The notes under the pieces: generated by a model | Databases searched by the model: none | What the model was told of the DNA's origin: nothing | The model's input: the letters and a program-made list of their open reading frames with translations, nothing else | Translations under genes and position numbers: made by a program | Assembly (NCBI RefSeq): GCF_003991155.1 | Contig: NZ_CP031293.1 | Origin: Escherichia coli | Lineage (GTDB): Bacteria; Pseudomonadota; Gammaproteobacteria; Enterobacterales; Enterobacteriaceae | Direction: 5' to 3' (one strand) | Length of the DNA: 64,000 nucleotides | Shown: one piece after another, positions 35,421 to 63,835 of the stretch | How positions within the stretch are numbered: the stretch's first letter is position 1 | Layout of the letters: the number at the start of each line of letters is the position of its first letter

Positions 35421-35434
35421 AATGCACAATAATA

Positions 35435-39544: not shown

Positions 39545-40915
39545 TTACTTGTTCAATAACGCAAGGATAAGTTTTGTCTTTTCTTCCATCAGCGGCACAT
39601 CACCGCGCGATTCCACATTCAGGCGCACCACCGGTTCGGTGTTGGAGGAGCGCAGGTTAAAGCGCCAGTCGGCAAAGGTCATGCTGATGCCATCGGTGCG
39701 ATCCACCGCCAGCGCCTCACGGCTAAAATGCTGTTCGACGCGATTAATCGCCTCAGCGGGTTGCGCCAGTTTGCTGTTGATCTCACCGCTTGCCGGAAAC
39801 GCTGCCATCCGGTCGCGCACCAGTTCGCCCAGCGTTTTTCCTTTCAGACACACCAGTTCGGCGACCAGCAGCCACGGGATCATGCCGCTGTCGCAGTAAG
39901 CGAAATCACGGAAATAGTGGTGGGCGCTCATTTCGCCACCGTAGATGGCGTCTTCCTTGCGCATACGTTCTTTAATAAAGGCGTGTCCGGTTTTCGACAT
40001 CACCGGTGTGCCGCCCGCGGCGGTCACCACATCAACGGTATTCCAAGAGAGACGTGGATCGTGGATGATCTTCGCGCCGGGATTTTTTTCGAGGAACGCT
40101 TCTGCCAGCAGGCCGACAATGTAGTAGCCCTCGATAAACTGCCCTTTTTCGTCAAACAGGAAACAGCGGTCAAAATCGCCATCAAAGGCAATGCCCATAT
40201 CCGCGCCGTGTTTAATGACCGCATTGCGGGTGTCGTCGCGACATTCCGGCAGCAGCGGGTTAGGAATACCGTTGGGGAAATTGCCGTCCGGCGTGTTGTG
40301 CACTTTGATCAATTCCACAGGTGCGCCGAGGGCTTTAAAGCGGGCTTCGATAGCGTCCACCACCGGACCCGCTGCGCCGTTCCCGGAGTTGATCACCAGC
40401 TTGAGCGGCGTGAGGTTTTTGACATTGATATAACCGAACAGGTGATCAACGTAAGCGTCACGCAGGTTGATTTGCTGATAGCGACCGCATTTGGTTTCAT
40501 CGACGGGAGGAAAGTCGTTGGCTTCAGCCAGACGCTGGACGTCGCGCAGTCCGGTATCTCCGCTGATCGGGCGAGCCCCCTCGCGAACCAGCTTCATGCC
40601 ATTATAATCCATCGGATTATGGCTGGCGGTAACTTCGATGCCGCCATCCACGCCGAGATGGAACGTGGCGAAATAGATCTCTTCGGTGCCGGACATGCCG
40701 ATATCCAGCACATCGACGCCCGCATCCTGTAAACCTCTCGCCAGCGCCAGTTTTAAGGTTTCGCTGGTGAGGCGGACGTCACCGCCTAACACAATGGTTT
40801 TCGGTTTGAGAAATTCGCCATAGGCGCGACCAATGCGCCACGCAATATCTTCATTCAGTTCTTCGCCTAATTTCCCGCGAATATCATAGGCTTTAAAGCA
40901 GGTTAATTTTTTCAT
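39545..40915 (-). CDS. manB: Phosphomannomutase (O-antigen cluster copy)
   Basis: 456 aa; near-identical in nucleotide sequence to cpsG at 62266-63636 except the 3' about 45 nt. Confidence 0.85.
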
Positions 40916-40939
40916 ATAAAAACCTTACCAATAATAAAA

Positions 40940-41698
40940 TTATTTATGCGCAAACAATTGCATTAGTTTTGAGATTTTTCTGATAATGATAGCAATTTTC
41001 CAATTTACATTATGGTTTTTCATAACTTCTACAATTTCCTTTGTACTTGATATCGCGTTATCAATTCTGGTACTTTCCCCACCCAATCTCATCTTTACAA
41101 ATACTTGAGGAACATAAATAACTTTAATATCATCACGTTTCAAAATCCTGACCATCTGATCATAGTCTGCAGCAATCCTATAGGATAAATCAAAATATCC
41201 ATCGTCTTTATATAATTCCCTCCTCATATAGAAAGATGGATGCGGTGGTGCCCAGCCTAATGATAGCTTAGAACGTTTAAAAGGACCACTACGCCAGTAT
41301 CGTTTGATTATATCAGTTTGGTTTTTTTCGAAAAAAACCAAATCACCGTATACAACATCCGCTTTTGTCTCATGGAAACGGCTTACAATAGTTTCAATAA
41401 TATCAGGTCTTGCTAAAAGGTCATCAGAATGAACGAATCCAATAATATCTCCCGTAGATAAATTTATACCTTTATTTAAAGCATCATAGATACCGTTATC
41501 GCTTTCTGATAGACATTTGGTTACTCTTGTTGATACTTCGTTAATTAGTTTTAACGTATTATCTGTAGAACCACCATCAATAATTATATACTCTATATCT
41601 TTATAGGTTTGCAACTCTATTGACTCTAAAGTATCCCTTAAAGTCTTTTCACTATTATAAGTCACTGTAATAATACTGACTTTCATTTTAACATCCAA
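40940..41698 (-). CDS. Glycosyltransferase family 2
   Basis: VSIITVTYNSEKTL...IIIDGGSTDNT GT2 signature. Confidence 0.75.
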   Translation of the reverse strand: MDVKMKVSIITVTYNSEKTLRDTLESIELQTYKDIEYIIIDGGSTDNTLKLINEVSTRVTKCLSESDNGIYDALNKGINLSTGDIIGFVHSDDLLARPDIIETIVSRFHETKADVVYGDLVFFEKNQTDIIKRYWRSGPFKRSKLSLGWAPPHPSFYMRRELYKDDGYFDLSYRIAADYDQMVRILKRDDIKVIYVPQVFVKMRLGGESTRIDNAISSTKEIVEVMKNHNVNWKIAIIIRKISKLMQLFAHK

Positions 41699-41769
41699 TA
41701 ATAATCATAATTAAATAACGTCAGTACAGCATTACGAATAATAATGTTGCATTAGTATCCAGCATCATT

Positions 41770-43170
41770 TTAGATTCTAACAACATCATCTTCATCCAAG
41801 TAGACACCTGAACGTACCTCAATAATCTCCAAAGGGATCTTTCCTGGATTCTCAATAAAATGAGGTACACCTATTGGTATATAAGTTGATTCATTTTCAG
41901 AAACAAGAAATATTTCATCTTCATAATGGACTTTTGCTGTTCCAGAAACAACAATCCAATGCTCAGTACGATGGTAATGAATCTGTTTAGCAGTTTTATG
42001 TCCAGGATGAATAACGACATGTTTAACCTCAAATCGAGATCCTTCCGCTATAGAGTCATGACTGCCCCATGGCCTAAATATTTCACGATGCTGCAGATAT
42101 TCCGTACGGTTATTAACCTTAAGTTTTTCTACAATATTTTTTACCTGTTGAACTTTATCTTTATGCGCAACGAGAATAGCATCTTTAGTTTCAACAACTA
42201 CTAAATCTTTAACTCCTACTACACCAATTAATCTATGTTGTGAGTAAAGATAACTGTCAGAAGAATCATGAATTAATACATCTCCTCTAATTGCATTTCC
42301 ACTTTTATCTTTTCTGCTAATTTCCCATAATGCAGACCAAGAACCAACATCGCTCCAGTGGGCATTTAATGGAACTACCACAGCCTCTGTTGTTTTCTCC
42401 ATAACAGCGTAATCAATGGATTCTTCAGGGCAACAACTAAATGAGTCATTATCTATACGGATAAAATCAAGATCTTGTGTAGAGGACTTCAATGCTTGTT
42501 GGCATATTTTTAGTATGTCTGGTCTAAATTTATTCAACTCATCAATAAACACAGAAGCCCTAAACATGAATATTCCACTATTCCAAAGATAATCTCCATC
42601 TTCAAGATATTTTTTGGCCACATCTAGCTCAGGCTTTTCAACAAAAGCAGAAACTTTAAAACCATATTCATTTAAATTTTCTCCGGTTTTTATGTAGCCA
42701 TATCCAGTTTCGGGTTTGGTTGGCACAATACCAAAAGTTACCAGCTTACCTTCCTCTGCAAATTCTTTTGCAGCCAATATTGACGATATAAAGCGCTTTT
42801 GGTCTTGTATTTCATGATCGGCTGCTAGTACAAGCAGTATTGGATCCTCACCTGATGAAATCGCTTTAAGAGCAGCAAGCGCAACTGCGGGGGCTGTATT
42901 ACGACCTATCGGCTCTAGTAAAATGCCACTATTCGCTAAATTTACATTACGCATTTGTTCTGCAACGATAAAACGATGAACTTCATTACAAATAACCAGA
43001 GCAGGACGATGTTCAACCCCTTCAAGCCTTCTTAAGGTCTCTTGTAGCATAGTCAAACGACTAGTTAACGATAGGAATTGCTTCGGATATAGTGTTCGAG
43101 AAAGTGGCCACAATCTAGTTCCAGAACCACCGGCCATTACAACAGGAAGTAGCATATAAATAACCTTCAC
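41770..43170 (-). CDS. manC: Mannose-1-phosphate guanylyltransferase / mannose-6-phosphate isomerase
   Basis: AGGSGTRLWPLSR motif, C-terminal cupin; start codon ambiguous. Confidence 0.85.
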   Translation of the reverse strand: MKVIYMLLPVVMAGGSGTRLWPLSRTLYPKQFLSLTSRLTMLQETLRRLEGVEHRPALVICNEVHRFIVAEQMRNVNLANSGILLEPIGRNTAPAVALAALKAISSGEDPILLVLAADHEIQDQKRFISSILAAKEFAEEGKLVTFGIVPTKPETGYGYIKTGENLNEYGFKVSAFVEKPELDVAKKYLEDGDYLWNSGIFMFRASVFIDELNKFRPDILKICQQALKSSTQDLDFIRIDNDSFSCCPEESIDYAVMEKTTEAVVVPLNAHWSDVGSWSALWEISRKDKSGNAIRGDVLIHDSSDSYLYSQHRLIGVVGVKDLVVVETKDAILVAHKDKVQQVKNIVEKLKVNNRTEYLQHREIFRPWGSHDSIAEGSRFEVKHVVIHPGHKTAKQIHYHRTEHWIVVSGTAKVHYEDEIFLVSENESTYIPIGVPHFIENPGKIPLEIIEVRSGVYLDEDDVVRI

Positions 43171-43622
43171 TTAAAATAATTTTTTGTGTACTGATGAACT
43201 GAGGAATTAGCTAACAATTCGGCTATATCGAACCAATTGTAAGTACTATGTTGTAGTGTTGGATAGTTAATTTGATGTGGCATCAAACTAATCTCATATC
43301 CGTGTACGACATAATGAGTTGAAAAACAAGTCCCAGAAAAATTGTCGCTGTAGAAATGTTCATAAATCCCAAGAAATTTTGCTTCATTAATGCTAATTTG
43401 AACACCCAATTCTTCTAAAGTAACTCTTTTGAATGCGTTCTCGAAAGACTCATCTTTAAGAATCCGTCCCCCCGGCACAAACCAATAATTTTGTGCTGGA
43501 CGATTAAGGCGCTGACCAAGCAGCGCCTTACCATCTTCGTTTCTTATAATAAGGTCTATCGAGATTAGTGGAGTATGTTCAACTATTGATTTAAATAACT
43601 CTGTTTCTAATCTCTTGTTCAA
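43167..43622 (-). CDS. gmm: GDP-mannose mannosyl hydrolase (Nudix)
   Basis: Homolog of E. coli Gmm/NudD (RPAQNYWFVPGGR). Confidence 0.8.
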   Translation of the reverse strand: MNKRLETELFKSIVEHTPLISIDLIIRNEDGKALLGQRLNRPAQNYWFVPGGRILKDESFENAFKRVTLEELGVQISINEAKFLGIYEHFYSDNFSGTCFSTHYVVHGYEISLMPHQINYPTLQHSTYNWFDIAELLANSSVHQYTKNYFK

Positions 43623-43624
43623 TA

Positions 43625-44590
43625 TTAACTCCTAAATGAGTCAAGATTATTTATAAACCATTTATATGTTAATTCTAGTCCTTGTTTTAAATTATAACGA
43701 TATTTCCAACCCAAATTCTCAAGGCGTGTAACATCCATAAGTTTACGAGGCGAACCATCTGGTTTTGTTATATCAAAAACAATTTTTCCATCATAGCCAA
43801 CAACTAAAGCCATTGTTTCTGCCATTTCACGTATGGAACAATCAACACCAGTACCTACGTTAATATGAGATAACATTGGTTGAGTATTTTTTTTATAAAT
43901 TTCATCATCAAGCTCCATCACATATACTGATGCAGCGGCCATATCATCAACATATAAAAACTCGCGTTTTGGAGTTCCCGTTCCCCAGACAACCACTTCA
44001 TTTAAACCAAGTTCCTTTGCTTCATGAAAACGCCGCATAAGCGCTGGAATTACATGTGAGTTATTGGGATGAAAATTATCATTCATACCATATAAGTTAG
44101 TAGGCATTACACTGCGATAATCACATCCATATTGGCGATTATAAGATTCACATAGCTTTATACCTGCTATTTTGGAAATAGCATAAGGCTCATTAGTAGG
44201 CTCAAGAGTTCCCGTCAAAAGTGCAGATTCTTTCATTGGCTGTTCTGCAAACTTTGGATAGATACAACTTGACCCTAAGAATAATAGTTTCTTTATGCCC
44301 GCTTTGTAAGATGAGTGAATAATATTGCTTTCAATAAGAAGGTTCTGATAAATAAATTCAGCTGGAAAAGTGTTATTAGCATGAATTCCTCCTACTTTTG
44401 CTGCTGCAAGGTAAACCTGATCTATTCTCTCTTGCTCAAAAAAACATTCAACATCCTTTTGAACTGTCAAATCGAGTTCTTTGTGAGTTTTGACAATTAA
44501 CTCAACATCATTACGTGCTAATAATTGACGACAAATAGCAGAACCAACCATCCCACGATGTCCAGCCACAAAAATTCGCTTCTTGGTCAT
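43625..44590 (-). CDS. fcl: GDP-L-fucose synthase
   Basis: 321 aa SDR, Fcl-like. Confidence 0.9.
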
Positions 44591-44593
44591 ACT

Positions 44594-45715
44594 TTAACGC
44601 TCCAAAGAGACTGCCACGTCAAAACCATGGCTTTTAAGAAGTGCATGCTGTTTAGCTTTTTCTAAATCACTAGCCACCATTTCTGCACACATTTCTTCAA
44701 CTGTAATCTCTGGCTCCCAACCCAAGACATTTTTTGCTTTTGTTGGATCACCAAGAAGAGTTTCAACTTCTGCTGGTCGAAAATAACGAGGGTCAACGCG
44801 AACAATAACATCACCAATATTAACACCAACGGCGCAATCTGATGTTTTATTTACAACAAATGCAATCTCATCAACACCAGTACCGGAAAACTCAAGTTCA
44901 AGTCCAACTTCTTTAGCAGACATACGGACAAATTCACGTACAGATATTTGTTTGCCGGTGGCAATAACAAAGTCTTCTGGCTGGTCTTGTTGAAGCATCA
45001 TCCATTGCATACGAACATAATCTTTCGCATGCCCCCAATCGCGTAAAGAATCCATGTTGCCAAGATATAAGCATTTTTCTATTCCCTGCGATATATTAGC
45101 TATAGCACGTGTGATTTTACGTGTTACAAACGTTTCCCCACGACGTGGGGATTCATGATTGAACAAAATACCGTTACATGCATACATTCCATAAGACTCA
45201 CGATAGTTTACAGTGATCCAATATGCATACAGTTTAGCTACGGCATAAGGTGAACGAGGATAGAACGGCGTTGTCTCTTTTTGTGGAACTTCCTGAACTA
45301 ATCCATACAATTCAGAGGTTGACGCCTGATAAAATCGGGTTTTTTTTTCTAATCCCAAAAAACGAATAGCTTCCAATAATCGTAAAGTACCTATAGCATC
45401 AACATCAGCTGTATATTCTGGGGATTCGAAGGAAACAGCTACGTGACTCATTGCGCCAAGATTATAAACTTCATCAGGTTGAACTTCAGATAATATCCGA
45501 GTCAAATTAGAAGTATCTGTTAAATCACCATAATGAAGTTGTAATTTTAAATTACGATGGTGTGGGTCTTGATATATATGATCAATACGGTCAGTATTAA
45601 ACAAGGAAGATCGACGTTTTATTCCATGAACCTCATAGCCTTTTTTAAGCAGAAATTCTGCCAAGTAGGAACCATCTTGCCCGGTAATTCCTGTAATTAA
45701 AGCTTTCTTACACAT
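44594..45715 (-). CDS. gmd: GDP-mannose 4,6-dehydratase
   Basis: 373 aa, [15 protein letters not shown] motif. Confidence 0.9.
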
Positions 45716-45725
45716 AAATAACCTC

Positions 45726-46733
45726 TCAAAACTTAGATAGTGATTTATATAGATTATATGTTTCGGAGAAACACTTCCCCCATGAAAATTTATTAGATTG
45801 CGCTAATCCTTTATTTTTTAATTCATTAGCGTTAGCTTCTACACTTAATAAAGCTGAGAATAAACTTTCAATTGATACTTCTTCGACTAAAATCGCACTA
45901 TCCCCCACAACCTCGGGTATTGATGATCTATTTACGGCTATCACAGGACAGCCAGTTCGCATAGCCTCAAGCAAGGGAATTCCAAACCCTTCATATTCTG
46001 AAGGATAGATTAAGCAATAAGCCGAATTATATAATATATTTAGTTTTTCATTTGATACCTTCCCTAAGTACTGGAATCTTTCTGGAAGATATTCAGATAG
46101 TAACTTCATTTCTGCTTTATTTAAACCACCTCCGCCGACTATTTTAAGATTAGTATCAAAAAGTTTAGAAATGGCTTTAACTGCAAGCTCAAAATTTTTA
46201 TATCCTGAACGAGCACCGACAAAAAGCACAAAATTTTCTTTTTCTAGATTTAAGTGTCTATAATCTTCCGATACACCATTATGAATAACATGTATCTTTT
46301 TTTCATCAACCTTAAAGAAATTAATTAAATCCTTGGCTGTATTATTAGAGACACAAATGATTGCATCGCTATGTTTCACAGCCCATCTTTTTTGTAAGCT
46401 ATGAACATTGCGCCGAAGTCCTTTCATATACAATTCATATGTGAAATCGTGGACCGTGGTCACAACCGCATATTCCCCATCTTTCGGAACCCGATAATAT
46501 GTAGAATGAAATATACTGTAATCTGAATCACTTTTTAATGCTTCAAAACATCTATATCGTTCTAAAAACCGGCATGGCCGATGGAGATCATCATTGTGAT
46601 TTTCATTTTTATCATTAAATTGAATGAACTTGTATTCGTCATTTTTTAATCTCTTAATGATTTCTTCAAAGTATACAGTGATACCACCATATGATTGTAA
46701 ACTTTTCACAATCCCATCATATAATATTTTCAT
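45726..46733 (-). CDS. Glycosyltransferase family 1 (GT4-like)
   Basis: [19 protein letters not shown] motif. Confidence 0.75.
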
Positions 46734-46801
46734 TTTTTGTTTTCATATATATAGATAACAATACAGTAAGCAATGAAATGGATGATTATAATTGTTTCAA
46801 T

Positions 46802-47818
46802 TTACTCTTTATATCCATTTGGATTCATTGTTTGCCATCTCCATGCATCTTCCACCATATTATTAAGAGTCCTTTTAGCAACCCAACTTAGCTGCTCGTT
46901 TGCTAAGGAAGGATCGGACCAACATTCAGCCACATCTCCATTTCGCTCAGAAACGATACGGAAAGGTATATCGCGTCCTGTTTCCAGTTTAAAAGCGTCG
47001 ATGATATCTAACACACTATAACCTTGACCAGTGCCTAAATTAAAAACTTTAAGCCCCTGGTTTCTATTGAGATTTTTTAAAGCGGCAAGATGCCCCTCAA
47101 CTAAATCGACTACATGGATATAATCTCTTACACCTGTTCCATCTTTTGTCATATATTTATTACCAAAAACATTTAGATAGGGTAATTTTCCAATTGCGAC
47201 TTGCGCAACATAGGGAAACAGGTTATTAGGAGTTCCTAAAGGATCTTCTCCAATTAATCCAGTCTCATGAGCACCTACAGGATTAAAATATCTTAGTATT
47301 GTGATATTTGCGTCGCTATTCGCGTTACAAAAATCACGCAATATATGTTCCACCATAAACTTTGAACGACCGTACGGATTGATCACCTCACCGACAGGGT
47401 GTTTTTCAGATATTGGAACATAATGAGGATTGCCATAGACAGTAGCAGACGAACTAAAAATTAGATTAGAAATATTCGCTTTCTGCATTTCATCAAGTAA
47501 TATTAGAGTCCCCAAAAGATTTGTGTCGTAATATTCTAATGGTTTTTTAATGGACTCGTTAACAGATTTTAAACCCGCAAAATGCATTACAGTAGAAACA
47601 TTATATTTTGAAAAGATATTTTTTAATATATGTCTATCTCTAATATCACCACGTAATTTTTTTATCTTAGATAAGCAAATTTCCTCTACTCGTTCTAGAG
47701 ATTTTGGAGAGGAATTGCAATAATTATCTAGCGATATAACATCATATCCATTTTGCAATAAAGTTAATATAGCATGTGAGCCAATATAGCCAGCCCCACC
47801 AGTCACAAGTATGCTCAT
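46802..47818 (-). CDS. gne: UDP-sugar 4-epimerase (GalE/Gne family)
   Basis: TGGAGYIGSH Rossmann motif, YGRSK catalytic motif. Confidence 0.8.
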   Translation of the reverse strand: MSILVTGGAGYIGSHAILTLLQNGYDVISLDNYCNSSPKSLERVEEICLSKIKKLRGDIRDRHILKNIFSKYNVSTVMHFAGLKSVNESIKKPLEYYDTNLLGTLILLDEMQKANISNLIFSSSATVYGNPHYVPISEKHPVGEVINPYGRSKFMVEHILRDFCNANSDANITILRYFNPVGAHETGLIGEDPLGTPNNLFPYVAQVAIGKLPYLNVFGNKYMTKDGTGVRDYIHVVDLVEGHLAALKNLNRNQGLKVFNLGTGQGYSVLDIIDAFKLETGRDIPFRIVSERNGDVAECWSDPSLANEQLSWVAKRTLNNMVEDAWRWQTMNPNGYKE

Positions 47819-47838
47819 ACTTTAATAGCTCCAATACC

Positions 47839-48906
47839 TTAATTTTCTTGACTATTGGCTCGATTGATCAAACTCATCCACTGAGCACTAACTATTTCTT
47901 CTGTATAATGTCTATTCACGAATAGGAATCCTGCATTTCCGTGTTCGGTTCGTTTAACATTATCTTCAAAGTAAGTTAGTTTTTCCTGAAATTCAATTTG
48001 AGATTGACACACAAATCCGCCACCCGATGAAGAAATCACGCTACTTGTCCCTCCAGATATATCCATTGAAATTACAGGTAATCCGTAGGACATAGCTTCA
48101 AGTATTGTAACAGGAAAACATTCAAAGTATGAACCGGATACAAAAACATCACTTTTTGCCAAAAAAACATCTGTGTTTAAACTCGGTCCATGAAAGTGTA
48201 TTTGGTTGTTATTCTTATATTTAGATTTGAGATACTCCAGCTCTTGACCACCTCCTACAATGTGTAAAACATACTTTTTTGTAGACGGGTGATTTATTAC
48301 TGCATTAATTAACCTTTCAACTCCTTTATCTTTAACAATCCGACCAATATAAATCAAATCAAGAGTTTCTTTTCCTTGATGTATGCGCTTATATTTTTGC
48401 GTTTTGATTGAATTTGGTATAATTACAACCCTTTTACAAAAAGTAAACTTATCTTTTTCCTTGTGAGAATTACAAACTACTACAGCTTTTTTATTAAGAG
48501 ACAAAAGAAATTTAAATACTTTTCTCCAAAAAATACTATTCTTGTCAAATGGATAATGTTCCCAGCAAATAATTTTATTCTTATTATACCGAAAAAAACC
48601 AATCAATAACAATAATGATGATGTAGCTATATCCGTGGAAATTATTAATTCAAGGTCTTTACTTTTGGCACTCAAAAAAAACAAATATTTAATGTAAAAC
48701 CTTAATTTGCTTTCTTCATATGCAGTATTGTCTTGGAATAAGTAGGTTTTCCGATTATCTTCTCTAACTTGTATCTCTTGTGCGTTTATTGCTGAAAAAC
48801 ATCTCACTTGTAGGCTGTTTTTAGTTAATATATCAATTAGATTTTCAACTGCTTTCTCAGTGCCACCTATTTTATTTTCATACAGCTTAAAGACTCCAAT
48901 GGACAT
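47839..48906 (-). CDS. Glycosyltransferase family 1
   Basis: EAMSYGLPVIS motif. Confidence 0.7.
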   Translation of the reverse strand: MSIGVFKLYENKIGGTEKAVENLIDILTKNSLQVRCFSAINAQEIQVREDNRKTYLFQDNTAYEESKLRFYIKYLFFLSAKSKDLELIISTDIATSSLLLLIGFFRYNKNKIICWEHYPFDKNSIFWRKVFKFLLSLNKKAVVVCNSHKEKDKFTFCKRVVIIPNSIKTQKYKRIHQGKETLDLIYIGRIVKDKGVERLINAVINHPSTKKYVLHIVGGGQELEYLKSKYKNNNQIHFHGPSLNTDVFLAKSDVFVSGSYFECFPVTILEAMSYGLPVISMDISGGTSSVISSSGGGFVCQSQIEFQEKLTYFEDNVKRTEHGNAGFLFVNRHYTEEIVSAQWMSLINRANSQEN

Positions 48907-48907
48907 T

Positions 48908-50865: not shown

Positions 50866-50873
50866 TGTTAGCC

Positions 50874-52109: not shown

Positions 52110-52189
52110 AACGAGCCTACGTACTTAACAAGTCTTATTTTGCACGATAGTTTACAATTTGTTAAGTAATATGGGATAAACATTTAATT

Positions 52190-52228
52190 CACGCTACCGC
52201 CCCTGGCTCAACAGCTACCAGCGTACTG
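52190..52228 (-). promoter_or_regulatory. JUMPstart element with ops (GGCGGTAGCGTG)
   Basis: Minus strand CAGTACGCTGGTAGCTGTTGAGCCAGGGGCGGTAGCGTG upstream of wzx. Confidence 0.6.
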
Positions 52229-52481
52229 CATGCATGTCCTAGTTGTACCTAGCATTAACCGTTATGGTTAGTTCGAAAAGCTTAACTCTGAACGTTTTAC
52301 CAAATCGCTTCAGAGATGGAGAAAATCTCAGCCTCCCACAATAAATGCCTATTGAAAAGTTATTGTTACTCATATTTAGAACGGTATAAAGAAAGAATGA
52401 GGCAATGAGTACAATTAGCCCCACGAATCCTCACCGCCGTTATAATTTTCTTATCAACCGTTACATCCGGTCAGATTTTCA

Positions 52482-53375: not shown

Positions 53376-53617
53376 TATTTTCCTACCTCTAAGTGACTGA
53401 TAGTGCGTAAATTATTGCCATAGATTAGCCAAACGGTATGGCTATATACCAAAGCTTAGTTCCGCATAACTTTGATTAAACCTTGCGATAACACTACACA
53501 CCATCAGCATCTGGGTTACTCGGATTACTCGGAATTCCGCATACTGATAATTTAATCAGTACCTCTTTCCGAATAATCGTAGTCCAACCTGGTCCTTTTT
53601 TCTCTGACTCGTCTGCA

Positions 53618-54613
53618 TTACTCAGAAACAAACGTTATGTCGTCTTTTTTGGCATGGACGAATTCATACTGCAGAGTTCGATCCAGACCTTGCGACAGCG
53701 TATACGGTGCCACAAAACCTGAAGAATGCACTTTCGTTGCGTCAAACTGTGTTGTTGCGCAGAATTTTTTCACGCGCACTGAGCTGACAGCGTATTTTTT
53801 GCCCGTAATTTTGCTCAGGATATCAAAACAATATCCCCCCAGCATTCCTAGTGGGTAAGGCAAGTGCATAGAAGGGATCTTTTTGTTCAGGCTTTGTTCA
53901 ACTTCAGCAACCAACTGGTTCATGTTCAGGTCTGGCTTATCAACGTAGTTATAAACCTCATAACCTGCGGCAACATTCTTCAGTTTGTACTTGATAAACT
54001 CAACAATGTTTCCAACATAAGCCATGGACTTATAGTTAGTCCCTGCGCCCACCATCATAAACTTGCCGCCAGCGATCTGTTTCAGCAAGTTATAGACGTT
54101 ACCGCGGTTGCGTTCACCGAAGATAACGGTAGGACGGATGATGGTTAATGAACGTTCTGTTGGTGCTTTGTTATACCATTCACGCAGCACTTCCTCTGCC
54201 TGCCACTTACTTTTGCCGTAGTGGTTGAAAGGGTCGTGTGGATGGTTTTCGTCAGGGTTGTGTTTGTTCAAACCATAAACAGCAACGGAACTGGTAAAGA
54301 TGATATTTTTAACGCCATTTTTTTCCATGGCAGCCAACACATTGCGGGTACCCTGAACGTTGACATCATAATAGAGAGAAGTAGGGCTGACGTCATCGCG
54401 GTGTTCCGCTGCCAGTAGCACAACAGTGTCAAAACCGGCTAACGCCTGGTCGAGTGCCTGTTGATCACGAACATCGCCAATCTGTGTGATTTCTGGATAA
54501 AAGTGGCTCTGCTGTTTGTCCAGGTTCTTGATATTAAAGTCAGCAATTGCCGTTTCAAGTAGTCGGGTTCCTACGAATCCGGAAGCTCCTATGAGCAAAA
54601 CGTTATCGTTCAT
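53618..54613 (-). CDS. gne: NAD-dependent sugar epimerase (gne-like) between galF and wcaM
   Basis: LLIGASGFVGTRLL Rossmann motif; position matches the gne locus recalled for some O serogroups. Confidence 0.7.
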   Translation of the reverse strand: MNDNVLLIGASGFVGTRLLETAIADFNIKNLDKQQSHFYPEITQIGDVRDQQALDQALAGFDTVVLLAAEHRDDVSPTSLYYDVNVQGTRNVLAAMEKNGVKNIIFTSSVAVYGLNKHNPDENHPHDPFNHYGKSKWQAEEVLREWYNKAPTERSLTIIRPTVIFGERNRGNVYNLLKQIAGGKFMMVGAGTNYKSMAYVGNIVEFIKYKLKNVAAGYEVYNYVDKPDLNMNQLVAEVEQSLNKKIPSMHLPYPLGMLGGYCFDILSKITGKKYAVSSVRVKKFCATTQFDATKVHSSGFVAPYTLSQGLDRTLQYEFVHAKKDDITFVSE

Positions 54614-54770
54614 AAATCACTTTAGTCTGGTTGTTACGTAAGAAACACAAGATAAAGATGAGTACCTTCTCTGAGTAGTCAATGCTGCCCAGCCCCAGCT
54701 TTAACAGTTAGTGTGAGGATTATAATCTTTTAGAACATTATATCCAGTAAGTTTATGAATGGTCGCAAAT

Positions 54771-56165
54771 CTACTCCCTCCGTTCCGGCAATCTAAAGTT
54801 AATCTTCTCCACATTAACAATATGGTGATTAATCCTGTCGATATCGACGGAGCTTTGCCCTTTTTCATTCACTGCATGAATATTCGTGAGTGAAAGCAGC
54901 GTTTTACGCTTTGCCATAAAAACGCCTCGAACGTCTTTGCGCATGTCAAAGTTCATGCTCAATGCGGGTCCAACTGAGGATTCCTGCATCACATTGATAT
55001 TTCGCATAAAAAGATGTTGCGGTTTGTTGTGTAACTCCAGCGACGCACGCTTCATCTCAATGTTAGTCAGCGCCACAAAGGAGACAGCATTCCCGGCGGA
55101 GATTTGAATGCCGCGCAATTTATAAGCAAGATGAGTATTATCCAGTTGAATATCATTCACTCGGAAATTCTGCGGTATCGAGAGATATTTGCCTTTAATT
55201 ACCCCATAGCCGATTAACATCCCGGCACTATTAATCATTTCAATATTATCAATCACAAAGTTGTCACAACCATAAATAGCAACTGTGGCGTTATCAATAC
55301 CTGCTTTCTTACTGAAATCCGGCGTGATATTACGAGCTTTGATATTACGGATAACAAAATGTTTACCATTTTCAACATGGATCAGTTGCCGACAATCCGA
55401 TCCCGTGATATTCGCCACGACAAAGTTTTTCACTGCCTGGTTTTCCGGATAATTATTATCGTAGGTACTTCCCGCAAGGCCTATGCCGATGCCCCAGTTG
55501 ATTTTGCCGTTGGTACAGTTAATGCGCTCAATGAGATGGTCGGATATCAAAATATCACTGTCGTTAATCGCCACGTTCCATTCAATAGCGTCGCCCTGTA
55601 AGTCGCTGAACTTACAGTTGGTGATGTTGGCACCGATTATCTGGTTATGAAATCCCTGGCGTAAGATGGCGTAATTAGCGTGGCTAACGGTCAGGTTATC
55701 GATGGTCAGGTTGTGCATGACCCGTTTGTTTTTGCCGCCGATATAAATCTGCGTTACCGGACCAAAGCCGCTCATCGCCAGCCCTTTGATGGTGCAGTCA
55801 GAACCACGCACATCCAGGGTGATGTTATGCATACTGCCGCCCTCCTCCCCTGTCACCTGGCTGCCGTCCTGTAAGACAAATCGCCCTCTGCCGTTGCCGC
55901 GCAGGCTTCCAAGGATGTGTAACGTTTTACCTGCAGGAATGAAGATGCCGGTGTTGATATTGTCACAAACCAATCCGGCAGGCACGACGACCGTTTGCCC
56001 TTCGCTGAAGGCTTGTTTAAATGAGGCGATCCAGTCGTGAGGGTTGTAGTCGTTAATGTTAACGCTTTGTTGAGCGGGAAGTGCGCGGGCGAAAGGCGTA
56101 TGGAGGAAGGCAAGCACAGAGCTTGCCGTCAGGAAGGTGCGTCGGGAGAGTTTTTTAAATGGCAT
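54771..56165 (-). CDS. wcaM: Colanic acid biosynthesis protein WcaM
   Basis: 464 aa with signal peptide, parallel beta-helix-like. Confidence 0.85.
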
Positions 56166-56175
56166 GCGTTCTCCT

Positions 56176-57396
56176 CTATAAAGCCTGCAGCAAGCTGGCG
56201 AGTTCTCGATTGATCACCTGCTGGTTAAAATCGTGTTCGACTTTTTCGCGAGCACGTTTGATAACCGGAGCCAGTTCGTCGGTGTCCAGTTGGCTAAACG
56301 CCGCCAGTCGTTGCGCCAGTGCGCGAGCATCGTTCTCAGGCACCAACCAGCCGGATTTATCGGCCTCCACCAGTTCAGGAATTCCGCTATGCAGAGTAGA
56401 AACCACCGGAATGCCGACCGCCATCGCTTCCATTAGCGCCACCGGAATGCCTTCCATATCGCCGTCCGCACCCGTTACCGAAGGCAGCAGGAAAACATCC
56501 GCGTCGTCTAGCATCGCTTTCACTTCGTGGCTCGGTTTAAAGCCCGGCATCTCTACCACATCTTCCAGTTGATATTGTTCGATGAGGGTGCGCAGGCGTC
56601 GTTCCCACGGGCCAATGCCGAGGATGCGATAGCGAAATGCCACGCCCTGCTCTTTCAACTGACGGCAGGCTTCGATCGCCACATGCAGGCCTTTTTTCTC
56701 GGTTAAGCGTGCGACGGAAATGATTTCCAGCGGTGTTGCGGGCGCTTTCACCGGACGCGGGCTAAAGCGCGTCATGTCCACGCCCATGCGCGATACGGCG
56801 ATTTTTTCCCTCGGGCATCCCATTTTTTGCAGCCTTCCGGCCCACAGATCGCTGATCGGTAGCATCAGGTCGCCACGGCGGAACAGTTGCTGATATTCGG
56901 GAGTGTAGTGGTTGAGCACTTCCCGACTGGAGATATCAATGCCGTGGAAGATAGTAGCGATTTTGCCGCGAATGATACCCAGTTCCCGTAGTTTTGCTGC
57001 GATTACCCCCGCAGGGCCAAAATGAGCGATAAAGACATCGGCATAAAATGGTGTTGCGACCTGGCCGCAAATGGCAGACAAAATCAGGTTCCGCGACTCA
57101 GCACCATAGCGTTTGAGGTTGAGCGCCTGCCAGGTATTTTTACGATGAATGCCGCGTAAGGTCTGGCTGGCGCGGTGGCGCAGTTTCGCCACTTTGCCCG
57201 TAGGTTCGTCCTGTAACCAGCGGGTTCTGGCGGCAAGGTTATATTTTGTCCATGCCGCGTGGGTGTTTTGTGTGTCGCCTTTTTGCAGCGCGACAATCTC
57301 CACCTCAAAGCCCATATCAATAAACGCGGTAATTTGATTGAGGACGAAGGTTTCCGACGACAGTGGAAATTTCAGTAAAAAGAAGCCGACCTTCAT
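56176..57396 (-). CDS. wcaL: Colanic acid glycosyltransferase WcaL
   Basis: 406 aa GT1. Confidence 0.85.
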
Positions 57397-58673
57397 TTCG
57401 CCTCCCCGATGCGTTCAAGCACAGATTTCACCATCTGCATTCCCGTCTGACGTTCGCGACTGACGGCTTCGTTAAGTCGCGTGTTCAGTGCCGGAAGCTG
57501 GCCTAAGGTATCCGCAACCATCGCTTGCAGGCTGCCGTCTAATAAATGACGGATATCAATTGCCATCTCTGGTAGCCCCAGTTGTTGCATAATCCCGGCG
57601 GATTTATGTTCATAGTTGATGGCAATCGCCGGAGTGGCAAAGTTCATCGAGATAATGGCAGAGTGCAGGCGCGTACCGACGGTGAGTTCACAGGCCCCCA
57701 GAATTTTGCCCATTTCCAGATCGTTGAGTTCATCCATCACCACGTGGTAACGGGCAGGATCGCTGATGTGCTGGCGAAGATTGAGCGCCACCATGCGGTC
57801 GTCTTTGTTATAGCTGTCGATGCCCGTACAGGTGGAAAGCGCAATCACCTGATACCCTTCGTCGAGAATGCGATTGACCACCCCGGCAAAGGCTTTTTCA
57901 TACGCTTGCTGAGTGGTGCCGAGACGTTTGTCGAACGGTGCCAGTTCGCGCAGGGTAATTGCTACCGTTTTCTGTTGTGCGGCAACGTCCAGCCAGTGTT
58001 GAACGGCATAGCTGGCGGTGAAGTCTTCTGTGTGGTGATCGACCAGCCACGCAGTATCGACGCCATGTTCGACTTTTGCGGTGGTGATATTGCTGCGTTT
58101 CATCAGTTCAAGGCTGACCGATTCGCGCAGGATCAGCGCGTCGCAGTGACCAAAAACGTAGTTCGCCAGTTGGTTAAATTGCTCATCCTGGAATGGACCA
58201 ACGCTGTGACCAATCATAAATAGCGGCTTTTTCGCCATGAAAGTGCAAAGCGCGTGTTCAAACTGCGGCACGCCGTAGAGATCGACAAAAAACGATCCGC
58301 CGACCTGAATAATGGCGTCGTAACCTGACAGCAGGCGCACGAAGTCAGTGAATCCCTGAGCGATGGCGATATTACGCAGCTTGCCAGTGTCGGTGACGCG
58401 TGAGAGCAATACCTGATGCTGATAGCGGCGACGGAGGACTTTTTTAACGCGCCCGACAACGCCCGCCGCGCTGTTGTGTTTTTTCATTTGCAGGAACAGC
58501 GGATCGCCCATTACCGGGCGGTTGAGCAGCCAGGAAGAACTGACCGGATAGCGGCTCATCACGTCCACTTCGGCATGTGGATTGAGGATATTGATGGCAT
58601 CAAGTAAGCCACGCAGGATGGCGCTATCGCCACGATTGCCGCAAGTGTGGTTGCCCAGAATAAGTAATTTCAT
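57393..58673 (-). CDS. wcaK: Colanic acid pyruvyl transferase WcaK
   Basis: 426 aa. Confidence 0.85.
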   Translation of the reverse strand: MKLLILGNHTCGNRGDSAILRGLLDAINILNPHAEVDVMSRYPVSSSWLLNRPVMGDPLFLQMKKHNSAAGVVGRVKKVLRRRYQHQVLLSRVTDTGKLRNIAIAQGFTDFVRLLSGYDAIIQVGGSFFVDLYGVPQFEHALCTFMAKKPLFMIGHSVGPFQDEQFNQLANYVFGHCDALILRESVSLELMKRSNITTAKVEHGVDTAWLVDHHTEDFTASYAVQHWLDVAAQQKTVAITLRELAPFDKRLGTTQQAYEKAFAGVVNRILDEGYQVIALSTCTGIDSYNKDDRMVALNLRQHISDPARYHVVMDELNDLEMGKILGACELTVGTRLHSAIISMNFATPAIAINYEHKSAGIMQQLGLPEMAIDIRHLLDGSLQAMVADTLGQLPALNTRLNEAVSRERQTGMQMVKSVLERIGEAK

Positions 58674-58724
58674 TTTTTCCTCATAAATTTGATGCCAGGT
58701 GAGGCTGTGTTTGTTGTGTTCGTT

Positions 58725-59325
58725 GCCGTTTTTTGCCTGATGCGACGCTAACGCGTCTTATCAGACCTACAAGATCCGAGCACAGAACCGTAGGACGGAT
58801 AAGGCGTTCACGCCGCATCCGGCATTCAGTGCCTGATGCGACGCTGACGCGTCTTATCAGGCCTACAAGACCCGAGCACAGAGCCGTAGGACGGATAAGG
58901 CGTTTTACGCCGCATCCGGCATTCAGTGCCTGATGCGACGCTGACGCGTCTTATCAGGCCTACAAGATCCGAGCACAGAACCGTAGGCCGGATAAGGCGT
59001 TTTACGCCGCATCCGGCATTCAGTGCCTGATGCGACGCTGGCGCGTCTTATCAGGCCTACAAGACCCGAGCACAGCCCCCCAGGACGGATAAGGCGTTTT
59101 ACGCCGCATCCGGCATTCAGTGCCTGATGCGACGCTGACGCGTCTTATCAAGCCTACAAGATCCGAGCACAGAACCGTAGGCCGGATAAGGCGTTTTACG
59201 CCGCATCCGGCATTCAGTGCCTGATGCGACGCTGGCGCGTCTTATCAGGCCTACAAGACCCGAGCACAGCCCCCCAGGACGGATAAGGCGTTTTACGCCG
59301 CATCCGGCAACCGTTGCCGGAACCG
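58725..59325. repeat. Tandem REP/BIME array (about six units of about 98 bp)
   Basis: Repeated GCCTGATGCGACGCTGACGCGTCTTATCAGGCCTACAAG...GGATAAGGCGTTTACGCCGCATCCGGCA units. Confidence 0.8.
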
Positions 59326-59336
59326 AAAACAGCCAT

Positions 59337-60815
59337 TCACCCCGCCCGTAAAAGCATTTTCATTTTTTCGCTGCGACAAAACTGACGCTTCACTTCCACT
59401 ACCAGCGGATGGCGTGACAGCACAATCATCACCACAAACGCCAGCACGCCCGCGGCTATTTGCACCGCCAGCAGCATGCCCAGAGCCATTTGCCCTTTCA
59501 GTACAATGCCCAGCGCATAACTGACCACCAGCGTCGGCAGCGAGAGATAAAACGGCAGCCATAAACTGAGGATGTACTGGCGATAACTGGAACCAAGAAC
59601 CGGTTTAATCATCACGAAGTAACTCAGAATGGTGTTGATAATCTGCACCAGCAGGAAACCGAGCGTGACGCCGATTGCGCCCGCCATCTGCCCACCAATA
59701 ACAATCGCCGGAATAAACAGAAAGGTTTTGAATACGTTGAATTTAAAGCTGATATCGACCCGCGCTTTCGCCATCAGCAGCGAACCAATCGGGTTCCCTA
59801 CTGAGCGCAGCAGCCCCACCACACACAGCAATTGCAGCACCGGAATAATGCTGCTCCACTTCTCACCAAAGACCAGCGGTACAAAGTTATTCGACACCAC
59901 CATCAGCCCCAGCAGCGCCGGAAAGTTGATAATCCCCACCACCGACAGCAGCTTGTAGAAGTTGATGCGCAGCTTTTCGGTGTCGTCCTGAATTTTGGCA
60001 AATGCCGGAAACAACACGCGGGTGATGATCGGATTCAGCTTCATCGGCGGCACAACGGCCACGTTGTACGCCAGGTTGTATCCCCCTGCCACGCCCGCAC
60101 CGAGAATACGCGCCAGCACCAGCGTTGAAAGGTTGGTGTTGAGATAGTTGATGATGCTGTCCGCCGTCAGCCAGGCACCAAAGCGTAAGTTCGGTGCCAC
60201 CGACGCCAGCGAGAAGTGCAGACCGGGGCGATAAATTTTGCGGCCAAAGTAGCCAAACAGCAGCGTTCTTACCGCACTATTGACCAGATAACCGAGGATC
60301 GCGGTCATCGCCAGTGGCCAGAAATGGGCGCTAACCACCGTAAAAGTGAAGCCCGCCAGCACCGCGCTGGTTTCGATCATGCCGATTTTGTTGAACTCCA
60401 GCTCTTTTTGCATCAACGCGCGGAACTGCTGCCCGTGGGGGATCACCACAAACGCCAGCGACAATGTTTTAATCAACGGTGCCAGGTCTGGGTTGTTCAG
60501 CACGTCACCAATGAGATCACTCAACAAAAACACCGCCACGCACACCACAAGCCCCAGCCCGACGTTCAGCCAGTACAACGTGGTAAGTTCCAGGTGACTG
60601 ATTTCTTTTCGCTGAATAATCGAGTTAGCGATACCGAAGTCAGAAAGCGTATCTGCCAGCGCGATGATCACCAGCGACACGGTAAGCAAACCGAACTGGT
60701 GGTTGTCGATAATCCGCGCCAGCACGGTCATCTGCACCAGCCCGAGGCCGATGATGATCACCGTGGCAATCGCCGACCACTTCGCGCCGCTGATGGTTTT
60801 TTCACGTAAGCTCAT
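59337..60815 (-). CDS. wzxC: Colanic acid flippase
   Basis: 492 aa polytopic membrane protein. Confidence 0.85.
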   Translation of the reverse strand: MSLREKTISGAKWSAIATVIIIGLGLVQMTVLARIIDNHQFGLLTVSLVIIALADTLSDFGIANSIIQRKEISHLELTTLYWLNVGLGLVVCVAVFLLSDLIGDVLNNPDLAPLIKTLSLAFVVIPHGQQFRALMQKELEFNKIGMIETSAVLAGFTFTVVSAHFWPLAMTAILGYLVNSAVRTLLFGYFGRKIYRPGLHFSLASVAPNLRFGAWLTADSIINYLNTNLSTLVLARILGAGVAGGYNLAYNVAVVPPMKLNPIITRVLFPAFAKIQDDTEKLRINFYKLLSVVGIINFPALLGLMVVSNNFVPLVFGEKWSSIIPVLQLLCVVGLLRSVGNPIGSLLMAKARVDISFKFNVFKTFLFIPAIVIGGQMAGAIGVTLGFLLVQIINTILSYFVMIKPVLGSSYRQYILSLWLPFYLSLPTLVVSYALGIVLKGQMALGMLLAVQIAAGVLAFVVMIVLSRHPLVVEVKRQFCRSEKMKMLLRAG

Positions 60816-60816
60816 A

Positions 60817-62211
60817 TCAATATGCCGCTTTGTTAACGAAGCCCTTGAATACCGTCAGGAAAACGATTTTGATATCGAACCAGACGCTCCATTCGCGGAT
60901 GTACTCAAGGTCGAACTCGACGCGTTTTTCCATTTTCTCCAGCGTGTCGGTTTCGCCGCGCCAGCCGTTAATCTGCGCCCAACCGGTAATGCCCGGTTTC
61001 ACTTTATGGCGCAGCATGTAGCCTTCAATGAGCTGGCGATACTGTTCGTTATGCGCCACCGCGTGCGGACGTGGACCGACAATCGACATCCCCCCGGTCA
61101 GCACATTGATAAACTGCGGCAATTCATCCAGCGAGGTGCGGCGCAGAAAGTTCCCCACTTTGGTGACGCGCGGATCGTTCTGCGTCGCCTGGGTCACCAC
61201 TTTGTCGTTCTCCATCACTTTCATGGAACGGAACTTCCACACTTTGATCGGCTTGCCATCCATGCCGTAGCGAGTCTGGCGAAAAATAACCGGCCCTGGT
61301 GAACTGAGTTTTACCGCCAGCGCAATACAGCACAGCACCGGGGAGATCAGCAGCAGAATAAGCGTTGCCAGCACAATATCTTCCGCACGTTTGAGCAGGC
61401 GGTTTACCCCGGAAAGTGGCGTGTCATACAGCGGCACCACCGGAACGCCGTTCATCTCTTCGAGACGTGAATGGAGAATGTTGAAGGTAAAGACATCGGG
61501 GATCAGCAGCACCGAACAGGTGGTGTCCGCCAGTTGATGGACCAGTTTTTTTACTCGTGCGCCGTCGCACATCTGCATCGCGATATAGACGTTATGAATC
61601 TTGCCCGCTTTCGCATCCTCGACCAGCTGTTGCAGATTGCCCGCCCAGTCGTTAGAAACGCCGCCCGGTTTTGGGTCGTGGTAAACGCCCACCACTTCAA
61701 ACCCTAACCACGGCTGATTACGGAAGCTCTCAAGCAGCATTTGTCCGGCGGCTAAATCCCCCGCCACCGCGACCATGCGCTTGTTATAGCCATGATTACG
61801 CAGCCAGCCCGCCCCAATGCGAATACATGAACGGCAAACCACCAGTCCGATACTGGTCAGCCCATACCACGCCAGCCAGATTTTCAGTTGCGTGTCGAAA
61901 TCATTGTTGAACGCCACCAGTCCAGCGCTGAAAATCACGCTTAAGGTCCAGTTTTGTAGCAACAGGGCAAATTCTGTCGCTGCCCGAACACCGCGCCATG
62001 AGCGATAAAAATCGGTGATGCCGCCCAGCATCTGGAACACCACCAGCGTAATCAGTGCCACCAACAGGTGCATGTAGAGGAATGACAGTCCGCTGACTTC
62101 GCAAACCAGCCATAGTCCGGCAAACATGATGGTGATATCTGAAAAGCGTTGCACCATAGAGATTAACGATGCATTGGTTTTCGCTCGCTCGCGCTTTTTT
62201 AGATTTGTCAT
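60817..62211 (-). CDS. wcaJ: Undecaprenyl-phosphate glucose phosphotransferase
   Basis: 464 aa, C-terminal sugar transferase domain. Confidence 0.85.
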   Translation of the reverse strand: MTNLKKRERAKTNASLISMVQRFSDITIMFAGLWLVCEVSGLSFLYMHLLVALITLVVFQMLGGITDFYRSWRGVRAATEFALLLQNWTLSVIFSAGLVAFNNDFDTQLKIWLAWYGLTSIGLVVCRSCIRIGAGWLRNHGYNKRMVAVAGDLAAGQMLLESFRNQPWLGFEVVGVYHDPKPGGVSNDWAGNLQQLVEDAKAGKIHNVYIAMQMCDGARVKKLVHQLADTTCSVLLIPDVFTFNILHSRLEEMNGVPVVPLYDTPLSGVNRLLKRAEDIVLATLILLLISPVLCCIALAVKLSSPGPVIFRQTRYGMDGKPIKVWKFRSMKVMENDKVVTQATQNDPRVTKVGNFLRRTSLDELPQFINVLTGGMSIVGPRPHAVAHNEQYRQLIEGYMLRHKVKPGITGWAQINGWRGETDTLEKMEKRVEFDLEYIREWSVWFDIKIVFLTVFKGFVNKAAY

Positions 62212-62265
62212 CGTTGTTCCTGTTATTAGCCCCTTACCCGCAGTGTGGTAAGGGAAGATCCGACA

Positions 62266-63636
62266 TTACTCGTTCAGCAACGTCAGCAGAGTTCGCGTTC
62301 GCGCTTCCATCAGCGGCACATCACCGCGCGATTCCACATTCAACCGCACCACCGGTTCGGTGTTGGAGGAGCGCAGGTTAAAGCGCCAGTCGGCAAAGGT
62401 CATGCTGATGCCATCGGTGCGATCCACCGCCAGCGCCTCACGGCTAAAATGCTGTTCCACGCGGTTAATCGCCTCAACGGGTTGCGCCAGTTTGCTGTTG
62501 ATCTCACCGCTTGCCGGAAACGCGGCCATCCGGTCGCGCACCAGTTCGCCCAGCGTTTTTCCTTTCAGGCACACCAGTTCGGCGACCAGCAGCCACGGGA
62601 TCATGCCGCTGTCGCAGTAAGCGAAATCACGGAAATAGTGGTGGGCGCTCATTTCGCCACCGTAGATGGCGTCTTCCTTGCGCATCCGTTCTTTAATAAA
62701 GGCGTGTCCGGTTTTCGACATTACCGGCGTACCGCCTGCGGCAGTCACCACATCAACGGTGTTCCAGGAGAGACGTGGATCGTGGATGATCTTCGCGCCG
62801 GGATTTTTTTCGAGGAACGCTTCTGCCAGCAAACCGACAATGTAGTAACCCTCGATAAACTGCCCTTTTTCGTCAAACAGGAAACAGCGGTCAAAATCGC
62901 CATCAAAGGCAATGCCCATATCCGCGCCGTGTTTGATGACCGCATTGCGGGTGTCGTCGCGACATTCTGGCAGCAGCGGGTTAGGAATACCGTTGGGGAA
63001 ATTGCCGTCCGGCGTGTTGTGCACTTTGATCAATTCCACAGGTGCGCCGAGGGCGTTAAAGCGGGCTTCGATGGCGTCCACCACCGGACCCGCCGCTCCG
63101 TTCCCGGAGTTAATCACCAGCTTGAGCGGCGTGAGGTTTTTGACGTTGATATAACCGAACAGGTGATCAACGTAAGCGTCACGCAGATTGATTTGCTGAT
63201 AGCGACCGCGTTTGGTTTCATCGACGGGAGGGAAGTCGTTGGCTTCTGCCAGACGCTGGACATCGCGCAGTCCGGTATCACCGCTGATCGGGCGGGCCCC
63301 CTCGCGCACCAGCTTCATGCCGTTATAATCCATCGGGTTATGGCTGGCAGTAACTTCAATGCCACCATCCACACCAAGATGGAACGTGGCGAAATAGATC
63401 TCTTCGGTGCCGGACATACCAATATCCAGCACGTCGACGCCCGCATCCTGTAAACCTTTCGCCAGCGCCAGTTTTAAGGTTTCGCTGGTGAGGCGGACAT
63501 CACCGCCTAACACAATGGTTTTCGGTTTGAGAAATTCGCCATAAGCGCGACCAATGCGCCAGGCAATATCCTCATTCAGTTCTTCGCCTAATTTCCCGCG
63601 AATATCATAGGCTTTAAAGCAGGTTAATTTTTTCAT
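62266..63636 (-). CDS. cpsG: Phosphomannomutase (colanic acid copy)
   Basis: 456 aa from [15 protein letters not shown]. Confidence 0.85.
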
Positions 63637-63699
63637 ATCGTTACCCTTTTTCAGGCAATAGTTGGCCCTGACCGAAACGGCCAATTTTGTTTTTGTCGT

Positions 63700-63828
<129 letters not shown>

Positions 63829-63835
<7 letters not shown>

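Follow-up and report, generated by a model that had tools for sequence, protein, structure and literature searches.

The stretch of Escherichia coli DNA analysed here, 64,000 nt of contig NZ_CP031293.1 in assembly GCF_003991155.1 (the window), runs through his, wzzB, ugd, gnd, the O-antigen cluster, galF and the colanic acid (wca/cps) cluster; these genes are encoded on the minus strand. Its subject is a pair of phosphomannomutase genes, manB of the O-antigen cluster and cpsG of the colanic acid cluster, which form a long direct repeat. The window belongs to serogroup O11: of 5426 complete E. coli genomes, 65 carry O11 family wzx and wzy genes that match its own at 99% identity or more. The features of the repeat and its surroundings are as follows.

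39545..40915, minus strand: manB, the O-antigen phosphomannomutase gene and final gene of the O11 cluster, adjoining gnd (open reading frame (ORF) of 456 aa; NF011943 score of 1049 bits; same place in O11 genomes).

39583..40915, minus strand: nt 1-1333 of manB, the colanic-acid-like core and repeat arm one (96.3% identical to cpsG, ungapped; GC content of 56%).

39545..39582, minus strand: the 38-nt 3′ tail of manB, a low-GC remnant of the original O-antigen manB (17 of 38 nt differ from cpsG; GC content of 29%).

62266..63636, minus strand: cpsG, the colanic acid phosphomannomutase gene (NF011943 score of 1056 bits; between cpsB and wcaJ, as in strain 2016C-3878).

62304..63636, minus strand: nt 1-1333 of cpsG, repeat arm two (alignment and repeat search).

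40916..62265, minus strand: the inter-repeat segment, which would be lost by one crossover (ORFs and borrowed annotation).

37975..39381, minus strand: gnd, which would adjoin the hybrid gene after deletion (ORF; the adjacency is present in deletion genomes).

63829..64000, minus strand: the 3′ end of cpsB, the colanic acid manC, cut by the window edge and marking the upstream side of the repeat (match to 2016C-3878).

Both proteins match the NCBIfam profile of the phosphomannomutase CpsG (NF011943) above its cut-off of 801 bits and across residues 1-456 of 456. The manB gene belongs to the O-antigen cluster, which galF and gnd enclose, and lies upstream of gnd at a distance of 163 nt; cpsG follows the end of the upstream cpsB by 192 nt. 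From position 62266 to 64000, the window is identical to 2016C-3878 at 1734 of 1735 positions; gene annotation for the inter-repeat segment was borrowed from a near-identical genome.

The two genes are 1371 nt each, lie on the minus strand as a direct repeat and have a start-to-start distance of 22,721 bp, exactly as the positions and the 22.7-kb spacing in a preliminary description of this stretch had it. Their pairwise alignment is gap-free and contains 66 mismatches over 1371 nt (95.2% identity), with 49 in nt 1-1333 (96.3% identity, 3.7% divergence) and 17 in the last 38 nt. The longest identical runs are 116, 113, 86, 86 and 65 nt, and the earlier wording that the genes are almost identical base for base is therefore too strong. 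The edges of the repeat are sharp. Upstream, similarity begins 2 nt before the ATG; downstream, it stops at nt 1333/1334, where identity collapses from 100% to about 55% without a break in the reading frame. The preliminary description had correctly located divergence at the 3′ end and in the flanks, but had put the breakpoint about 45 nt from the 3′ end, where the measured distance is 38 nt before the end of the stop codon. In the flanks, the two loci match at the random level (18-31% per 100 nt). Within the core, 45 of the 49 differences are synonymous, with a synonymous divergence (Ks) of 0.16, a nonsynonymous divergence (Ka) of 0.004 and a Ka/Ks of about 0.02. A repeat search of the window found only the manB/cpsG pair and arrays of repetitive extragenic palindromic (REP) elements, with no further long repeat joining the two clusters. 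Overall, the repeat is real and its near-identity was overstated.

The other genes that the two clusters have in common are far less alike. Between the O11 cluster and the colanic acid cluster, nucleotide identity is 69.7% for gmd, 64.4% for fcl, 48.9% for gmm and 57.0% for manC/cpsB, compared to 95.2% for the whole manB and cpsG genes; the claim that the pair is more similar than independently evolving paralogues (49-70% here) is thus upheld, and the likeness also greatly exceeds chance. Moreover, the four O11 genes have GC contents of 35-39% and their colanic acid paralogues 54-56%, and manB falls with the latter, having a GC content of 55% across its body and 56% in its core, except for the 38-nt tail at 29%. 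A high-GC core within a low-GC cluster, ending in a low-GC tail, implies that the body of manB is colanic acid sequence joined to what was the end of the original, low-GC manB. These sequence comparisons support a recombinational replacement of the manB body as the cause of the likeness. In such a replacement, nt 1-1333 of the gene would have been substituted from cpsG by homologous recombination (gene conversion in the broad sense), producing a chimera in which the original gene probably survives solely as the 38-nt AT-rich 3′ tail. We infer that the transfer ran from the colanic acid cluster to the O-antigen cluster; the reverse, an O-antigen manB entering the colanic acid cluster, was rejected on the grounds of composition.

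The replacement is probably old and not particular to this genome. The 38-nt tail of the window's manB is also found in the manB genes of O125, O6 and O7, and the 3′ breakpoints differ by cluster, lying at about nt 1100 in O86, at nt 1333 in O11, O125, O6 and O7 with their common tail, and at about nt 1344 in O157. These differing 3′ breakpoints imply that cpsG was captured more than once. Short, cluster-specific 5′ ends are present in the O6, O7 and O157 manB genes. Two further arrangements were observed. In O86 (strain BE2-5, locus 20267-21655), manB is cpsG-like at 91-100% per 100 nt up to about nt 1100 and at 59-69% thereafter, and it encodes a longer product of 462 aa with a different C-terminus, an independent capture with its own breakpoint. 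In O75 genomes, not only manB but also manC matches its colanic acid counterpart (cpsG and cpsB, respectively) at about 95%, and wzx(O75) and gnd come next; manC seems to have been part of the capture in this case.

The relationship between the two loci was then compared across strains, using a 1311-nt core from 12 O-antigen manB and 16 cpsG genes of 16 genomes. Among 210 polymorphic sites, there are no fixed differences between manB and cpsG and 90 shared polymorphisms, and a neighbour-joining tree is star-like, with manB and cpsG sequences interleaved. Further, particular pairs of alleles from different strains share mosaic tracts, including nt 221-558 between the manB of PCN033 and the cpsG of K-12 (60 polymorphic sites, per-pair p = 5e-5) and nt 459-819 between the manB of E. 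coli W and the cpsG of 23CRST024 (per-pair p = 1e-4); after correction for the 192 manB-cpsG pairs screened, both p values become about 0.01-0.02. In this small sample, the manB and cpsG loci behave as one recombining allele pool. As a result, the resident pair in the window is about as diverged (3.7%, Ks of 0.16) as any two E. coli cpsG alleles. Segments would pass between the manB and cpsG loci, and also among the O-antigen clusters that end in manB (O11, O125, O6, O7 and O157).

An alternative is that cpsG was captured once, in an ancient event, after which the two genes evolved independently and the apparent pool arose from allelic recombination at each locus alone. The O11, O125, O6 and O7 manB genes, with their same tail and breakpoint, would fit one founding event for that group, and the nearest-neighbour statistic shows a weak separation of the loci (Snn = 0.77, p = 0.013). 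However, when the 10 manB genes with the same tail are compared to cpsG, there are still no fixed differences and 76 shared polymorphisms; the long identical tracts between manB and particular cpsG alleles (the two mosaic tracts above) also speak against isolation of the loci, and the other breakpoints in O86 and O157 indicate repeated capture. A single capture followed by independent evolution is accordingly unlikely.

The preliminary description had instead attributed the similarity to recent gene conversion. Here, cpsG would have been copied over manB, or the reverse, within this strain or its immediate ancestors, with the 49 differences accumulating since. The much greater likeness of this pair than of the other O-antigen/colanic acid paralogue pairs is consistent with such an event, as are the sharp repeat boundaries. 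The resident copies are, however, no closer to each other than copies taken from different strains: the window's pair has 49 core differences, while the means are 46.8 for the manB/cpsG pairs residing together in 12 genomes, 48.2 for manB versus the cpsG of other strains and 45.8 for cpsG versus cpsG. A GENECONV-style test, in which the longest run of concordant polymorphic sites was compared to runs after permuting the site order, found no conversion tract in the window's pair (longest run of 18 polymorphic sites, p = 0.29), and the identical runs of 116 and 113 nt are about what is expected for 49 random differences in 1333 nt. A Ks of 0.16 likewise weighs against recency. Moreover, the same manB allele occurs in O11 strain PCN033, with at most 4 differences, even though the cpsG genes of the two strains differ at 46 sites, and it is 99.0% identical to the manB of the E. 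coli W O6 cluster. Thousands of genomes have a cpsG that the manB query matches, with identities of 95.3%-97.4% in a 40-row sample spread across the matches. No cpsG donor with 99% or higher identity to the O11 manB core was found among the 5426 genomes, the best cpsG match seen in that sample being about 97.4%. The matches at or above 99% are the O11 manB of 42 genomes and 14 records of the E. coli W O6-cluster manB and its derivatives; W was the one inspected, and the others were taken to be manB by analogy. Elsewhere, nominal tracts shared by a genome's own two copies were found in E. coli W (nt 1116-1323, p = 0.0026) and O157:H7 (nt 880-1119, p = 0.01), implying that in-situ conversion probably happens sometimes. 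For the window itself, a recent conversion has very little probability; the earlier interpretation is therefore partly supported, as its conversion origin and deletion potential stand and its timing does not.

The remaining alternative, that manB and cpsG are ordinary paralogues which purifying selection on an essential enzyme has kept alike, the two loci never recombining, agrees with the strong purifying selection on both copies (Ka/Ks of about 0.02) and is otherwise refuted by the composition and breakpoint data, as selection on the protein cannot keep synonymous sites 86% identical when gmd, fcl, gmm and manC retain 49-70% nucleotide identity, and as it accounts neither for a manB body of colanic acid GC content in a low-GC cluster, nor for an abrupt collapse of identity 38 nt before the stop codon with the frame continuing, nor for the absence of fixed differences alongside 90 shared polymorphisms, leaving it practically no chance.

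A capture that installs 1.33 kb of colanic acid sequence in the O-antigen cluster would also create a substrate for deletion by homologous, presumably RecA-dependent, crossover. Efficient RecA-dependent recombination needs a minimum of about 25-30 bp of identity, and the two arms have the same orientation and the five identical runs of 65 nt or more given above. One crossover would remove 22,721 bp, carrying away wcaJ, wzxC, wcaK, wcaL, wcaM, the 4-epimerase gene, galF and the O11 genes, and it would leave the arrangement cpsB-[cpsG 5′ part/manB 3′ tail]-gnd. In particular, the segment at 40916..62265 contains 11 genes of the O11 cluster (among them wzx, wzy, glycosyltransferase genes, galE, gmd, fcl, gmm and manC), followed by galF, a gene for N-acetylglucosamine (GlcNAc)-PP-undecaprenol 4-epimerase, wcaM, wcaL, wcaK, wzxC and wcaJ. 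A cell with the deletion should, we infer, have neither O antigen nor colanic acid, and such deletions may arise in this particular strain.

Complete RefSeq genomes were searched for this product with a synthetic junction query made of the 3′ part of cpsB, cpsG nt 1-700, manB nt 701-1371 and the 5′ part of gnd, which one place in a genome can cover only if the intervening DNA is gone. O75 clusters, with their colanic-acid-like manC and manB (84-95% query coverage), were set aside. The cpsB-hybrid-gnd arrangement occurs in VREC0864, isolate 127, TUM14697 and FDAARGOS_1249; further, O157:H7 strain 7.1_Anguil has cpsB-hybrid-(insertion sequence (IS) remnant)-perB-gnd, and CEC13002 has the same features as read from the match table alone, making a total of six deletion-type genomes. 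All five of the hybrids inspected have a cpsG 5′ flank and a manB-type tail. The crossovers could be placed in three of them by comparison to near-parental genomes. In 7.1_Anguil, the crossover lies at nt 877-1122 (versus O157:H7 E32511), the longest identical stretch of that pair, and in isolate 127 at nt 14-71 (versus O6 strain FDAARGOS_1256, to which cpsB is identical at 1437 of 1437 and gnd at 395 of 395 positions); in both, all informative sites are cpsG-type before the crossover and manB-type after it. In FDAARGOS_1249, it lies before nt 81 (versus O11 strain Nord58). The ManB and Gnd protein accessions of FDAARGOS_1249 are those of Nord58, and the 5′ part of gnd is identical at 388 of 388 positions; a site at nt 1248 that departs from the pattern and a differing cpsB indicate that Nord58 is not its exact parent. 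The deletion foreseen in the preliminary description is thus represented in six complete genomes and has been published for O14 (PMC7685785) and REL606 (PMC4173774). As a separate observation, up to 6 manB-like places occur in one genome or more; unequal manB-cpsG crossover leading to tandem amplification could account for them, as could additional capsule clusters or fragmentation.

Overall, it is very probable that the O11 manB is an old, colanic-acid-derived chimera that has an allele pool in common with cpsG and provides a deletion substrate. Several considerations weigh against this account. The sample is small, comprising 12 manB and 16 cpsG genes of about 5,700 copies in the collection, and the residual locus structure measured by Snn indicates that homogenisation is incomplete. 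Several independent captures of the whole core, and not continuing short-tract exchange, could be the source of part of the shared polymorphisms; both processes are conversion and differ in tempo. In principle, the deletion-type genomes could be products of assembly, with the 1.3-kb repeat collapsed. For example, 7.1_Anguil is labelled O157:H7, yet its record (locus 5393-6763) has no wzx, wzy, rfbE or remainder of the O157 cluster where these would separate cpsG from the manB tail, and either the deletion followed serotyping or the repeat was collapsed in the assembly. The strain of the window is known from one assembled sequence, in which deletion or circle junctions are not observable. Lastly, a divergence of 3.7% should depress recombination under working mismatch repair, and its rate here may be low.

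Alongside its exchange with cpsG, manB lies at a junction of exchange between O-antigen clusters. Window-type manB is present in only 42 of the 65 O11 genomes. Apart from it, the allele nearest to the O11 manB core comes from the O6 cluster of E. coli W (99.0%; W locus 24110-25480). The O6-cluster manB of VE-F10 (locus 19989-21359) is 98.0% identical to the O11 core and that of O6 strain FDAARGOS_1256 is 96.3% identical; this variable identity implies that manB alleles move between unrelated O-antigen clusters. Moreover, the window and Nord58, both O11, are 99.6-100% identical over the stretch that starts at gmd and ends one base ahead of the manB ATG, and 96.3% identical through manB, the intergenic region and gnd, and this drop at the start of manB implies that the edge of a transferred O11 block lies there in at least one of the two lineages. 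Conversion of the Nord58 manB by its own cpsG was rejected as an explanation, as there are 51 differences and the drop runs on into gnd, which suggests a cluster-transfer junction. By lengthening the gnd-side flanking homology into the cluster, a conserved manB core would serve as a crossover site in O-antigen cluster swaps. Two side observations concern the same region. Nord58 has an IS1 in its O-antigen gmd and a frameshifted wzxC (Nord58 locus 5601-7499 and 20619-22096). O11 (39545-45715) and O125ac (locus 29749-35919) have the same 3′ module, gmd-fcl-gmm-manC-GT2-manB, in which GT2 and manB together have about 97.7% identity and Fcl carries one protein accession (WP_000163129.1) in both clusters.

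Several other features of the window were recorded. A 331-aa gene between wcaM and galF (53618-54613, minus strand) is annotated in matching genomes as a gnu-type GlcNAc-PP-undecaprenol 4-epimerase, the presence of which implies that the O11 O unit is initiated with N-acetylgalactosamine. Long antisense ORFs lie inside manB (39728-40732, plus strand, 334 aa) and cpsG (62245-63453, plus strand, 402 aa); rather than being genes, they most likely result from GC-rich third codon positions. The wcaK-wzxC intergenic region holds a REP-like tandem array (58710-59423) of six units of about 97 nt composed of REP-like palindromes, and a related REP-like copy is present in the cpsB-cpsG intergenic region (63718-63832). 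REP elements at these two intergenic sites have been described as hot spots for indels and junctions (Iguchi et al. 2011, PMC3158064).

One of the closest known systems is that of E. coli B REL606. Raeside et al. (2014, PMC4173774) reported that its manB and cpsG are 96% identical and underwent 7 rearrangements between them in the long-term evolution experiment, where 10 of 12 populations lost the manB-cpsG region, one deletion measuring 23,293 bp. REL606 resembles the window in having the direct repeat at 96% identity and a distance of about 23 kb, and in the type of its manB 3′ tail; its recombination lost the O-antigen genes and part of the colanic acid genes. In contrast, REL606 has an IS1-disrupted O7 cluster, and its events were seen experimentally, whereas the 22,721-bp deletion of the O11 window is only predicted. 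In the O14 type strain, recombination between the two manB genes removed the O-antigen cluster (2020, PMC7685785). This strain represents a natural outcome of the same repeat and has, as known from that paper, the architecture of the six cpsB-hybrid-gnd genomes found here, while the window keeps both copies and an intact cluster.

In O157, manB was replaced by the colanic acid gene, according to Samuel et al. (2004) as cited in Iguchi et al. (2011, PMC3158064), and gene conversion with the colanic acid copy has been proposed to explain the variability of O157 manB (PMC3158064). As in O11, the body of the O157 manB is more than 95% identical to cpsG, with manC and the rest of the cluster low in GC and divergent, and no other gene of the cluster, which is conserved elsewhere, varies as much. 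The two differ in their breakpoints (about nt 1344 in O157 versus 1333 in O11) and remnant tails, and the O157 manB is parted from gnd by an IS remnant and perB, unlike in O11. In Salmonella, genes at the ends of O-antigen clusters (manC, manB and wbaP; the rml genes) undergo concerted evolution among serogroups and continue to serve as recombination sites (Reeves et al. 2013, PMC3715488). The role of manB as a junction is similar in the O11 comparison, though the manBC genes of those Salmonella groups reportedly have GC contents of 36-41% and exchange between O-antigen clusters, not with the colanic acid copy (PMC3715488).

The O11 case is thus a further instance of a phenomenon already known from O157, O14 and O7/REL606; the chimeric manB, its conversion with cpsG and the manB-cpsG deletions are documented, and the discovery value is small. 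The small population comparison puts numbers on a published idea, in that the loci lack fixed differences and resident pairs are no more alike than random ones, and it corrects the notion of a recent conversion. A more ambitious proposal is that the manB core is a maintained, portable homology arm, kept cpsG-like by continuing exchange, which sets the gnd-side junction of cluster swaps and gives recurrent one-step loss of O antigen and colanic acid, making it a contingency locus retained by selection. The absence of fixed differences across O11, O125, O6, O7 and O157 is cited in its favour, and if it were true, joint loss of the two polysaccharides would be useful, for example under phage or immune pressure; we regard it as improbable.

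The repeat has some practical bearing. The manB query has 5712 matching places in 4677 RefSeq genomes, corresponding to roughly a thousand genomes with two copies. Short-read assembly and typing schemes based on manB are both put at risk by a 1.3-kb repeat of 96% identity. A single recombination step can cost O11 and other two-copy strains their O antigen together with their colanic acid, a loss that is relevant to serotyping failures, to rough variants and to selection by phage or serum.

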